Virus record (IMG/VR): IMGVR_UViG_3300028392_000030
Location: 1-64,000 of that record
Origin: a virus
Strand: one strand, 5' to 3'
Length of the DNA: 64,000 bases
The notes under the pieces were generated by a model that ran no database searches, had not been told where the DNA came from, and saw nothing but the letters and a program-made list of their open reading frames with translations. Both the position numbers and the translations under genes were made by a program. How positions within the stretch are numbered: the stretch's first letter is position 1; each line of letters opens with the position of its first letter. Positions 49,799 through 59,236 of this stretch are shown piece after piece.

Positions 49799-50122
49799 AT
49801 GGCAAGAAAACACCTATATACTTGGAACAATGGCGAAGACAAAGAGCTGTTTGAGTCTTTGAAACTGATATTAGGGCCCGTGAAAAATTGGAAAGGACAA
49901 ACTTATAAAAGAACTCTTTCGTTTTTAGCGGAAACCAAATATGGAAATTCTAACACAGACATTGGAGCACTTGAAATGAGAGTTGCTTTCTTAACTAGTA
50001 AACAAAAGGCATCTTATTATAGAACTCGTGGCAGAGAAAATGTATTCAAACAAGTTGTAGTTGGTGCTGTGGCGTCGGGTGTAGCAAGTTATAAGGACCT
50101 AGCGCCAAGATTAAATGGGTAA
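49799..50122 (+). CDS. Hypothetical basic protein
   Basis: AAGGA SD; 107 aa. Confidence 0.6.
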   Translation: MARKHLYTWNNGEDKELFESLKLILGPVKNWKGQTYKRTLSFLAETKYGNSNTDIGALEMRVAFLTSKQKASYYRTRGRENVFKQVVVGAVASGVASYKDLAPRLNG

Positions 50123-50140
50123 ATAAAAGTATTGCTGTAA

Positions 50141-50451
50141 AGCCCGTAAGGGAAGAAGCAAAGAGAAAAGTGTTCTGGACCCGGGTTCGACTCCCGGCAT
50201 CTCCACCTAAGTGTATGGGGTATATTTAGGTGGGGATGACTTGGTTTTCGACAGGGCAAAGAGTAACAGAGTGGACAGCACGGTAGGCGATGACCGTAAA
50301 TCAAGCAAATCAAGTAAATGCAAAAGCATCTACAGGCGAAGTAACTGTTTCTGGTAAGAACGTCAAGTTCTCTGCTCGCACAGTGAAAGCCGAATCTTTC
50401 GCAGTTTAATCGCCGCGATAGGGCAGGAAATGCCTCGTAACAGAAACTACC
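50141..50451 (+). ncRNA. ssrA: Circularly permuted (two-piece) tmRNA
   Basis: T-arm and CATCTCCA (to 50205) precede GGGGATG (50232); G3-U70 pair; hairpin intervening segment; tag frame 50320-50409; outer ends approximate. Confidence 0.85.
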
Positions 50452-50454
50452 AGA

Positions 50455-50477
50455 ACCCGCTTCGGCGGGTCTCTTTT
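50455..50477 (+). terminator. Intrinsic terminator
   Basis: ACCCGC-TTCG-GCGGGT then CTCTTTT. Confidence 0.8.
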
Positions 50478-50522
50478 CGACTGTTTGAGTGGATAAAAAT
50501 TACTGTGTATCAGTAAAACCAC

Positions 50523-51181: not shown

Positions 51182-51904
51182 ATGGCAAAATTAATAGTAT
51201 GCGGATGTAGTTTGAGTGCTGATAGCATTGACAGGCCAGGAACAGGCTATGGCCATCAAACAGCCAAGCGGTTGGGTTGGGACGTAGAGATACTGGCACG
51301 GCAAGGATGCAGTAACGGTGGTATCCGTATACAAATAGATGAAGCACTACGCCAACAGCCTGATTTTGTCATTGTGGCACCAACATTTTGTGATCGTATA
51401 GAGATTCCTGCTGCCACTGACTGTGGCTACGATAAAACAGCCGGTATTGATAATGTTAACTATGGCACAAATCCATATCGCATGATTTGTGAAAATATAA
51501 CTACGTTGGTTGGGAATTATAACAATCCATATCGCACAGGTGAACTAGATAAAAATACACAGGAGGCGATTCGACAATACATTAACCACATATACGATGT
51601 CAATTGGAAGCGACAGCAAGATGAATGGATCATGCGCGATGGCATTATGCAGTTGTTCTATTCTGGTATACCATTTTTGATTATCGCCGGCGAACTTTGG
51701 AATACCGGAAATATACGCCAAGCTATACCTAAAGTAGTAGACGATCGATACTTGACCCTTGACTACCAAGAAACACCTAATTATGCAATAACCAATTGGC
51801 CGTTTGAAAGCACAGACCCTGGATACCACGGTAGTCCGGCTGGTCAGGAATATTTGGCAGAAATCTATGCCGACAAGATACGCAATTGGCAATATGCCAG
51901 TTGA
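51182..51904 (+). CDS. SGNH/GDSL-like hydrolase
   Basis: CGCSLS, QGCSN, GYHGS. Confidence 0.6.
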   Translation: MAKLIVCGCSLSADSIDRPGTGYGHQTAKRLGWDVEILARQGCSNGGIRIQIDEALRQQPDFVIVAPTFCDRIEIPAATDCGYDKTAGIDNVNYGTNPYRMICENITTLVGNYNNPYRTGELDKNTQEAIRQYINHIYDVNWKRQQDEWIMRDGIMQLFYSGIPFLIIAGELWNTGNIRQAIPKVVDDRYLTLDYQETPNYAITNWPFESTDPGYHGSPAGQEYLAEIYADKIRNWQYAS

Positions 51905-53335: not shown

Positions 53336-53364
53336 TTGACAAGATATAGGAGTTAGTGTAAAAT
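53336..53364 (+). promoter_or_regulatory. Sigma70-type promoter for tRNA array
   Basis: TTGACA-17-TAAAAT. Confidence 0.7.
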
Positions 53365-53463: not shown

Positions 53464-53667
53464 ATGGACATTGATCAAGCGGCAGTATTTTTAGCAGGTA
53501 GTATTTTAACAGCACTGGGATTTATTATTATTGTAATAGCGGCAGTTGTTATTAATAATATCATTCACAAATATTGGAAAAGTTTTGGTTGGAATTTTTT
53601 TCCAGCTTATGTGCAAAAAGAAGAAAAAGAAGTGGTTTACGAAGAACCCAAGTTGGATAAGAAATAA
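53464..53667 (+). CDS. Small membrane protein
   Basis: One long hydrophobic helix. Confidence 0.6.
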   Translation: MDIDQAAVFLAGSILTALGFIIIVIAAVVINNIIHKYWKSFGWNFFPAYVQKEEKEVVYEEPKLDKK

Positions 53668-53669
53668 GT

Positions 53670-53746
53670 CGGAGTGTAGCACAGCCTGGTAGTGCGCCTG
53701 GTTTGGGACCAGGAGGTCCGAGGTTCGATCCCTCGTACTCCGACCA
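53670..53746 (+). tRNA. tRNA-Pro(TGG)
   Basis: CCTGG-TTTGGGA-CCAGG; CCA. Confidence 0.92.
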
Positions 53747-53753
53747 AGAGTTT

Positions 53754-53828
53754 GGCTTCATAGTATAATGGTTAGTACGGTGGCTTGTCACGCCACTAAT
53801 AGGAGTTCGATTCTCCTTGAAGCCGCCA
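53754..53828 (+). tRNA. tRNA-Asp(GTC)
   Basis: GTGGC-TTGTCAC-GCCAC; CCA. Confidence 0.92.
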
Positions 53829-54234
53829 AGTTAGGGTGCCTGAACATAAATGCATAAGACAGTTCAGGTTAAGTGGTATCCCGTTATGGGGCCAGCCCAC
53901 CTAACGTGCCAACTGTCATTGGCTAGTCTGACCCAGACGATGAGAAGTGGTATGACAACCACGGGTGGTTCTGAAACGAAAAGTTTCACACAGAAGCCAT
54001 GATAGAACATGGATGTATGTGCGGTCCAACCTAACCGGCGCTAGCAATGCGAGAACGGTCCCTGTCGGGAAGCGGGTGGAAGGTGTAAGTGACGAACAGA
54101 CTAGTTAGGGCAACTTGACGAAATTTCTGATACACTATAATTACCGCCGGGGGACGCAGAGCATATATGAACACATTCGGTTGGCCCATAGCCAACAGAG
54201 ACATCAGAAACGTGAGTGTGTTCTTATATGTTTT
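53829..54234 (+). ncRNA. Candidate large structured ncRNA (GOLLD/ROOL-like context)
   Basis: No convincing ORF; many hairpins and nested long-range helices between tRNA-Asp and tRNA-Tyr. Confidence 0.55.
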
Positions 54235-54320
54235 GGAGATGTAGGAAAATTGGTAACCCCAGTGGACTGTAAATCCGCCGCCTTCAGGCACTGTTGGTTC
54301 GACTCCAGCCGTCTCCACCA
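54235..54320 (+). tRNA. tRNA-Tyr(GTA)
   Basis: GTGGA-CTGTAAA-TCCGC; long variable arm; CCA. Confidence 0.92.
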
Positions 54321-54325
54321 AACAT

Positions 54326-54401
54326 GCTCGGTTCGTCTATCGGCTAGGACACTGCCCTTTCACGGCAGGAAGGAGGGGTTCGATTCCCCCACCGAGTACC
54401 A
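54326..54401 (+). tRNA. tRNA-Glu(TTC)
   Basis: CTGCC-CTTTCAC-GGCAG; CCA. Confidence 0.92.
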
Positions 54402-59146: not shown

Positions 59147-59236
59147 GGAGAGTTGGGTGAGCGGCTGAAACCAACGGTCTACTAAACCGTCATAGTGGCA
59201 ACACTATCGTGGGTTCGAATCCCACACTCTCCGCCA
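59147..59236 (+). tRNA. tRNA-Ser(ACT), unusual A34
   Basis: ACGGT-CTACTAA-ACCGT; long variable arm; G73; CCA. Confidence 0.88.

Follow-up and report, generated by a model that had tools for sequence, protein, structure and literature searches.

A phage-restricted family of structured RNAs, mostly encoded in the tRNA arrays of uncultured giant phages: a conserved core with accessory modules

Phage T4 encodes, inside its tRNA cluster and on the tRNA strand, the small stable RNAs rnaC and rnaD (species 1 and species 2), probably processed out of the tRNA precursor; tRNA-Arg is followed at 1 nt by rnaD and this in turn, 6 nt further on, by rnaC. GOLLD and ROOL, the latter of ~580-660 nt, form homo-oligomeric cages. 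To our knowledge, T4 rnaC and rnaD, GOLLD and ROOL are RNAs of tRNA arrays whose role is still unexplained. GOLLD and ROOL are ornate phage and prophage RNAs, often located next to tRNA islands (PMC12286853), while the HDV-like theta ribozymes of gut phages lie immediately 3' of phage tRNA genes (PMC10879173).

We describe here an RNA gene located in the 406-nt gap (53829-54234) between the genes for tRNA-Asp (53754-53828) and tRNA-Tyr (54235-54320) of IMG/VR virus record IMGVR_UViG_3300028392_000030, a giant phage from a lake, whose relatives are uncultured phages of ~340-360 kb. The DNA analysed, referred to as the window, is the first 64 kb of this 197-kb record, which is estimated to be 57% complete. 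The gap belongs to an array in which 14 tRNA genes and a permuted tmRNA gene, identified by ARAGORN and Rfam, all have the same orientation. An initial annotation, produced from the sequence alone, had proposed for it a structured RNA of ~400 nt, inside the tRNA array, belonging to the GOLLD/ROOL class or to a new one. The gap does contain a real RNA gene, in the proposed setting and co-oriented with the tRNAs. Its make-up, however, is composite: the conserved RNA measures ~200-260 nt, and the remainder consists of two accessory modules. The core is the gene of a phage-restricted, uncatalogued family of structured non-coding RNAs. The parts of the locus are the following.

53754 to 53828, + strand: tRNA-Asp(GTC), CCA encoded, upstream neighbour (ARAGORN; Rfam tRNA, 67.8 bits).
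53829 to 53902, + strand: accessory module X1, 74 nt, with two hairpins including CCTGAAC/GTTCAGG, outside the conserved core.
53903 to 54163, + strand: conserved core RNA, 261 nt here (nhmmer E = 2.8e-52, profile positions 1-199; covariation).
53970 to 54020, + strand: optional insertion, 51 nt, with two hairpins (TGAAAC/GTTTCA and CCATG/CATGG), a gap in most alignment rows.
54158 to 54234, + strand: 3' extension, a long AU-rich closing stem which ends in UUUU and encloses the hairpin GTTGGC/GCCAAC.
54235 to 54320, + strand: tRNA-Tyr(GTA), downstream neighbour, beginning right after the UUUU (ARAGORN, Rfam).

In the search for relatives, the neighbouring phosphoesterase gene was used as bait and yielded 80 related loci, three of them with recognisable copies of the gap sequence. 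The core of the closest relative (L003) is 93% identical; a copy lying between different tRNAs (L023) already has three hairpins with compensatory changes. An exact 19-mer of the conserved part occurs in 61 viral loci and a second core motif in at least 120. With a profile built from the loci carrying either motif, nhmmer recognised the core in 162 viral loci, corresponding to 138 full-length copies and 100 distinct sequences, which form the alignment (A2) used throughout. Nearly all carriers, well over a hundred, are uncultured giant phages. Core length in the relatives ranges between 171 and 278 nt, with minimal members of ~198 nt. Four out of five near-complete relatives carry the core, each in one or two copies. 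By contrast, none of 50,697 records of cultured phages matched the 406 nt in blastn (word size 11), and of the 14 stretches that a two-part motif scan picked out among 185,579 genomes of bacteria and archaea, one per species, none was confirmed by the nhmmer profile. Since the profile recognises none of them, these are regarded as chance occurrences.

The ability of the core to adopt a defined secondary structure was evaluated on the 100-sequence alignment, after deriving helices by eye and by a mutual-information scan. The 46 proposed pairs, in 12 helices, are 97.5% paired, as against 83.6% in shuffles. Changes on both sides were found for 29 pairs (602 cells), whereas shuffles give 20.5 pairs (152.7 cells), and sliding the partners by 1-3 columns lowers pairing to 34-50%. 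The same pairs come out at the top of an APC-corrected mutual-information scan, and RNAalifold, run blind on the same alignment, returned the same helices plus a short one, P1, with 24 of 42 pairs compensated. The core fold is under selection. A lack of covariation, together with that of a stable transcript, had been named in the initial annotation as what would speak against the RNA; collection of homologues, also proposed there, has instead produced the 29 pairs with changes on both sides. Some pairs are frequently of the G-U type (GU 98, UG 71 and UG 65 in the 100 sequences); as these would be A-C mismatches on the other strand, they fix the + strand as the transcribed one, which is also supported by all neighbouring tRNAs lying on the same strand as the core.

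The model comprises eight nested helices, a loop-loop kiss between H1 and H3, a GGU:ACC pseudoknot and a K-turn-like loop. Its elements, all within the core, are listed below.

53905 to 53907, + strand: 5' strand CGU of P1, predicted partner ACG at 54055-54057 (RNAalifold; weakly supported).
53908 to 53923, + strand: helix H1, GCCAA/UUGGC (5 of 5 pairs with double changes, 100% paired).
53926 to 53938, + strand: helix H2, GUCUG/CAGAC, with an ACC loop (99.8% paired).
53939 to 53946, + strand: near-invariant junction GAUGAGAA (conservation in A2).
53947 to 53962, + strand: helix H3, GUGGU/ACCAC (alignment columns 50-52/60-62, three pairs with 40-45 double changes each).
53963 to 53969, + strand: GGGUGGU segment, six of seven bases invariant (middle U replaced by C in L155 and L216).
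54021 to 54038, + strand: helix H4, CGGU/ACCG here, with a conserved AACC loop (pairs 54022-25/54034-37).
54039 to 54051, + strand: helix H5, CGC/GCG (CG 74 / UA 26).
54058 to 54063, + strand: 5' strand GUCCCU of helix B, partner GGGGAC at 54150-54155 (100% paired).
54072 to 54075, + strand: 5' strand GCGG of helix A, partner CCGC at 54144-54147 (99% paired).
54082 to 54136, + strand: arm H7, with basal helix 54082-86/54132-36, K-turn-like loop and variable tip (17-35 double changes).
54156 to 54163, + strand: conserved 3' tail GCAGAGCA (AGAGC invariant in A2).

At the 5' end, core positions 1 and 2 vary. In P1 the C-G and G-C pairs are 98-99% paired and the third is U-A in 93 and U-G in 7 sequences, with no double changes. 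The outer pair of H2 is found as GC 54, CG 44 and UA 2. H3 corresponds to the GTGGT/ACCAC hairpin (53947/53958) of the initial annotation, which is thus borne out by strong compensatory variation. The H1 loop GUC (53915-53917) kisses the H3 loop GAC (53954-53956), with columns 15 and 58 occurring as GC 74, AU 17 and GU 8. The pseudoknot joins GGU 53964-53966 to ACC 54029-54031 in the H4 loop; here the U-A pair, present in 98 sequences, is C-G in the other two, L155 and L216, which have different backgrounds. These two members share three changes in all, the H2 loop passing from GA-CCC to GGUCCC, GGGUGGU to GGGCGGU and the H4 loop from AACC to AGCC, which hints at a three-way tertiary contact between the two ACC loops and the GGU repeat.

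H4 pairs vary as CG 68, GC 22 and AU 10, and as UA 69 and GC 30. A further tertiary pair links the last base of the H5 loop, U54048, with A54055, just before CGG (UA 93, CG 7). Pairs of helix B are found as UA 87, AU 8, GC 2 and CG 1, and as CG 86, AU 5 and UA 5; in helix A, CG is replaced by UA in two sequences, and L098 has GCUG/CAGC by eye. Because the strand ACG|GUCCCU pairs with both the 5' end (in P1) and the 3' end (in B), the two termini meet. The 3' arm consists of helices B, then A, then H7 with its K-turn-like bend, and in the model the 5' domain, H1 to H5, is locked by the H1-H3 kiss and the GGU:ACC pseudoknot and stacked on this arm. A K-turn has, between two helices, a three-nucleotide bulge and next to it tandem sheared G-A / A-G pairs. 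The K-turn-like loop has a bulge at 54088-90, followed by G54091 facing A54130 and A54092 facing G54129; 75 of 96 members, the window copy among them, have this sequence signature, bulge plus GA/GA, and about ten have GAGG / UUUCU in its place, which by eye could form a plain helix. The junctions GAUGAGAA, GGGUGGU, GUCGGGAA and UAUAAUUA are near-invariant; like the tertiary pairs, they point to a precisely defined shape in three dimensions, such as is found in ribozymes, aptamers and the cores of RNA-protein machines.

Several other pairings were considered and dropped. An alternative helix GGUGGU/ACCGCC was abandoned in favour of GCGG/CCGC on account of the variants GUGG/CCAC (L083, L130) and GCUG/CAGC (L098). 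The segment GGUCCC-UGUC-GGGAAGC resembles domain IV of the signal recognition particle (SRP) RNA, but covariation pairs GUCCC with the 3' end. A hammerhead was discarded by eye, GAUGAG lacking the following CU and having the wrong flanking stems, and the group I P3-P7 topology and the RNase P helix P4 were considered by eye and likewise set aside. Every hairpin listed in the initial annotation is present in the sequence, at the positions given there. It had also drawn a nested long-range pairing of 54021-54040 with 54145-54157, which is rejected, since it does no better than shuffles: it is 67.5% paired over the 100 homologues, against 67.7% in shuffles, and its covariation equals theirs. The bases involved form instead H4 and helices A and B, all of which covary.

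Taken as a whole, the 406 nt are more stably folded than shuffles on the + strand (z = -2.9), with a smaller advantage on the - strand (z = -1.5). The component parts differ in this respect. X1, in which the initial annotation had noted the hairpin CCTGAAC/GTTCAGG (53839/53862), is found in just three other loci (L003, L096 and L221), always directly upstream of the core; L221 has a compensatory change in the first hairpin. The module is rare and folds no better than shuffles (z = -0.9). The hairpins TGAAAC/GTTTCA (53972/53983) and CCATG/CATGG (53997/54008) hold as well, within an insertion that folds stably (z = -4.3), is absent from the ~198-nt members and is replaced by different inserts in others.

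The closing stem, 54158-54234, corresponds to the 71 nt after the core plus the AGAGCA tail of the core itself, and has a folding energy of -30.8 kcal/mol (z = -5.7). Its arms CATATATGAACAC/GTGTTCTTATATG (54162/54218), noted in the initial annotation as enclosing GTTGGC/GCCAAC, are conserved: they recur, with compensatory variants and varied interiors, in about one third of the downstream contexts. Precisely, 32 out of 88 score at least 15/18 for the closing segment, a simple complementarity score, with a few of these passes probably due to chance, and the 24 distinct forms listed have interiors unrelated to one another and stems with compensatory variants. Because of this recurrence in about a third of the contexts, the outer hairpin is regarded as a real and conserved, but optional, extension. 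Long AU-rich stems are also seen downstream of the core in L084, L085, L101, L114 and L122, again with conserved arms and unrelated interiors; two types of arms are found, CAUAUUGAAGCACA...UGUGUUUCAAUAUG and UAUAGUUAAGCACCGA...UCGGUGCUUAACUAUA. By analogy, such arm-bracketed stems recall the processing stems around rRNAs, and may be excision cassettes for small RNAs.

In the relatives, the slot between tRNA and core is occupied by further modules of ~70, 74 and 122 nt, at least three in number and unrelated to each other. Those of ~70 nt are found in L138, L140, L151 and L216, others in L158, L212 and L230, and in L124, L139 and L197. Each has its own closing stem with compensatory changes, for example GAAGCCAC/GUGGCUUC versus GAGAGUC/GUCUCUC, so that these modules are probably small structured RNAs in their own right.

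The covariance-model check proposed in the initial annotation was run on two copies. With Rfam 15, the whole window gave only tRNAs, tmRNA and noise at gathering score, and at E<=10 no family matched either 53700-54350, where only the flanking tRNAs were detected, or the minimal copy L142:5655-5875. No description of the core RNA was found in the literature, in a comparison lying outside the 8,495 unnamed IMG/VR candidates of PMC10690425. In the absence of a match at E<=10, the core is assigned neither to GOLLD, for which a match would be expected in the conserved 3' domain, nor to ROOL. Of the two options offered by the initial annotation, the one that stands is the new class, without an Rfam family.

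It is hardly credible that a known family (GOLLD, ROOL, RNase P RNA, SRP RNA, 6S or tmRNA) was missed, or that the region has no function and consists of decayed tRNAs, chance hairpins or a small protein gene. In favour of a missed family, the window does encode a permuted tmRNA, so that rearranged RNA genes occur, and covariance models would miss a permuted relative; accessory modules of about tRNA size could likewise suggest decayed tRNAs. Besides the negative result with Rfam on two copies, covariation and conservation over 100 distinct sequences rule out chance or decay. As to a protein gene, the lack of a credible open reading frame (ORF) stated in the initial annotation extends to the homologues, where no ORF is conserved in any of the six frames, the median longest stop-free run being 28-46 codons; an 11-codon ORF in the H7 arm was dropped, since indels in this arm do not come in multiples of three. 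Bacterial RNase P RNA deserves separate mention: its long-range helix P4 is formed by CR-I (GGAAAGUCC) and CR-V (ACAGAA..GGCUUA). In the core, the AAGU-containing strand resembling CR-I is the 5' strand of the local hairpin H3, which covaries (40-45 double changes per pair), and takes no part in a long-range P4; no Rfam match was obtained here either, at E<=10.

The association with tRNA genes was quantified on 98 distinct contexts with enough flanking sequence. A tRNA on the same strand is found within 400 nt in 92 of them, and every neighbouring tRNA has the orientation of the core. The first conserved base of the core comes 0-3 nt after the end of a tRNA in 56 contexts, and in 29 a tRNA starts 2-10 nt after the last. 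The flanking tRNAs vary by locus (Tyr, Ser, Asp or Cys upstream; Cys, Ala or Ile downstream), and the divergent members L104 and L132 stand outside tRNA arrays, with a terminator-like hairpin of their own. On these grounds the RNA is a self-contained module which prefers tRNA arrays without needing them. L104 and L132:5863-10123 belong to a GC-richer phage lineage, in which the RNA follows a conserved ORF of 338 aa and has no flanking tRNAs; this lineage encodes a GroEL-like chaperonin (544 aa) and a protein that looks peroxiredoxin-like by eye from its translation. In L003, the segment 7512-7604, at the position of the tRNA-Tyr of the window, received no tRNA call from ARAGORN and differs in the D-arm region; it may be a decaying or atypical tRNA.

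By genomic arrangement, which is where the likeness lies, the closest analogues are T4 rnaC and rnaD, small RNAs within a phage tRNA cluster whose abutment to a tRNA 3' end matches the 0-3 nt spacing of the core. The T4 RNAs are, however, 119 and 139 nt long, rnaC having a tRNA-like T-arm, as compared with 171-278 nt and a pseudoknot, kissing loops and a K-turn-like loop in the core, and the family profile gave no match with nhmmer --max at E<=10 in T4 70000-72500.

The same spacing could fit a ribozyme processing its own precursor, a possibility that we consider unlikely. Such a ribozyme could, for instance, cleave at its 5' boundary and so generate the 3' terminus of the tRNA before it, as the small HDV-like theta ribozymes of gut phages do. 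It would account for the core beginning 0-3 nt after the CCA end of a tRNA in the 56 contexts, as well as for the near-invariant junctions and for a fold with pseudoknot and kissing loops, features common in RNAs that catalyse or bind ligands; theta ribozymes, located directly 3' of phage tRNAs (PMC10879173), provide a precedent. The spacer, however, is not fixed but varies over 0-3 nt, core positions 1-2 vary, and 17 of the 98 contexts lack an upstream tRNA in the adjacent 400 nt. No ribozyme family of Rfam matched at E<=10. Theta ribozymes are shorter than 100 nt and form the HDV nested double pseudoknot, with P1 beginning at the cleavage site and pairing downstream of P3, whereas the core opens with three local hairpins and has another topology, its first helix from the 5' end being a local hairpin rather than part of an HDV-like P1-P2 arrangement; a size of ~200 nt also far exceeds that of known self-cleavers, except glmS and VS.

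With RNAs of the GOLLD/ROOL kind, the core shares phage encoding, vicinity to tRNAs and an extensive covarying structure with pseudoknots. One could imagine it as a smaller version of ROOL and GOLLD that assembles itself into a particle made of RNA only, with the H1-H3 pairing possibly intermolecular. Covariation does not tell whether loop-loop pairs form within or between molecules, peripheral sites accept insertions, searches for protein partners gave none, and the genomic habitat is that described for ROOL and GOLLD (PMC12286853). The core nevertheless has no match in sequence or structure to either (covariance models, E<=10), is 3-4 times smaller and has a different helix layout; we hold such assembly to be doubtful.

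The T-box leader and the L15 loop of RNase P read tRNA 3' ends by GGU:ACC pairing. The core resembles them in having a conserved GGU-containing single strand and a K-turn-like loop, and differs in that one GGU is taken up by an ACC loop within the same molecule, no model matches, and neither a terminator nor a downstream gene is obligatory. A cis-acting sensor, similar to a riboswitch or T-box, that controls read-through of the 54158-54234 hairpin and its U-run into the downstream tRNAs is given very little credit. GGGUGGU and the later ACCGCC do recall the T-box sequence AGGGUGGNACCGCG, the K-turn-like loop is there, and the downstream hairpin, with UUUU at its end, uses the conserved 3' tail AGAGCA as one of its strands. 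In a T-box leader, however, that sequence is contiguous and forms an antiterminator, in competition with a terminator, ahead of an aminoacyl-tRNA-related gene. Here the two halves of the motif are separated by more than 100 nt, CCGC has GCGG as its partner, and one GGU is engaged with the internal ACC loop; the hairpin is found in only about one third of the contexts, and in 29 of 98 the next tRNA is 2-10 nt away, too close to accommodate an expression platform. Downstream genes are mutually unrelated, and neither T-box nor riboswitch families of Rfam matched at E<=10.

RNAs of ~200 nt with pseudoknots, kissing loops and near-invariant junctions are usually ribozymes, riboswitch-like binders or cores of RNA-protein machines. 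The explanation we favour, with a probability of roughly 55%, is that the 53903-54163 RNA is a stable, excised, trans-acting scaffold linked to tRNA or translation. It would be co-transcribed within a polycistronic tRNA precursor, perhaps from the following site, which could drive a unit running from tRNA-Met through the RNA to tRNA-Leu.

53336 to 53364, + strand: promoter-like site TTGACA-17-TAAAAT, 11/12 (consensus scan; consensus match only).

Release by tRNA processing on both sides, as suggested in the initial annotation, is plausible in view of the direct abutment to tRNAs in many relatives. RNase P would cut where the downstream tRNA begins and the pathway that matures tRNA 3' ends would act at the upstream one, while the long closing stem, 54158-54234, may be cut by a double-strand-specific nuclease such as RNase III. 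The freed RNA would then act in trans, as a folded scaffold binding a partner connected with tRNA or translation; this guess about the partner is based on the RNA being made in step with the phage tRNAs and on the near-invariant junctions, including GGGUGGU.

Several points weigh against the scaffold explanation. Expression, ends and stability of the RNA are inferred. One 356-kb relative, 96% complete, gave no BLAST match to the RNA, which is hence not indispensable to this phage group, and replacement of the K-turn-like signature in about ten members indicates that this feature is not essential either. The record of the window encodes no L7Ae-type K-turn protein, RtcB or CCA-adding enzyme, and searches of five near-complete relatives gave no L7Ae-type protein either, although these null searches for partner proteins were not taken as evidence against binding. 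Capture of tRNA CCA ends is weakened by the internal use of at least one of the two GGU triplets.

The surroundings of the gene were also analyzed. The promoter-like site lies between tRNA-Trp and tRNA-Met, and two more are found at 51901 and 52587; with such near-consensus sigma-70-like promoters, the tRNA region may comprise several transcription units. The permuted two-piece tmRNA gene, at 50110-50500, scores 98.5 bits with Rfam tmRNA_permuted and 89.1 bits with beta_tmRNA, and its tag, as given by ARAGORN, has 29 residues ending in ...ESFAV; this tmRNA type suggests a betaproteobacterial host or donor. Within the array, tRNA-Met and tRNA-Pro have between them a 67-codon ORF (53464-53667), whose product would be a small hydrophobic peptide with no Pfam match, and a tRNA-Ser with the unusual anticodon ACT (59147-59236) is located 3 nt from tRNA-Arg(TCT). 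Pfam searches on ten neighbouring ORFs gave only the calcineurin-like phosphoesterase and a weak MCD-domain match, nothing related to RNA. A pattern scan for the downstream 325-aa ORF found no relatives among viral contigs, and the sole megablast match of the 8 kb around the gap was tRNA-Leu of Ralstonia phage RP13.

As to what the family may do, a more far-reaching option, to which we attach little likelihood, is a new RNA class acting on tRNA ends, either as a ribozyme that matures or repairs the flanking tRNAs or as a GGU-bearing RNA that captures or shields tRNA CCA ends. If true, shielding could operate, for example, against host defences attacking tRNA, and action on tRNA ends would explain why the RNA is retained inside the tRNA arrays of giant phages. 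For the annotation of these genomes, a seemingly empty spacer of ~400 nt, present in many giant phages, is now filled by an RNA gene and its accessory modules, in carriers which are uncultured and have tRNAs and tmRNA of their own. With its compact size of ~200 nt and its covariation-backed fold, the RNA is of a size suited to crystallography, cryo-EM, SHAPE and in vitro assays, and offers a tractable route to an old question, the role of the non-tRNA RNAs in phage tRNA clusters.

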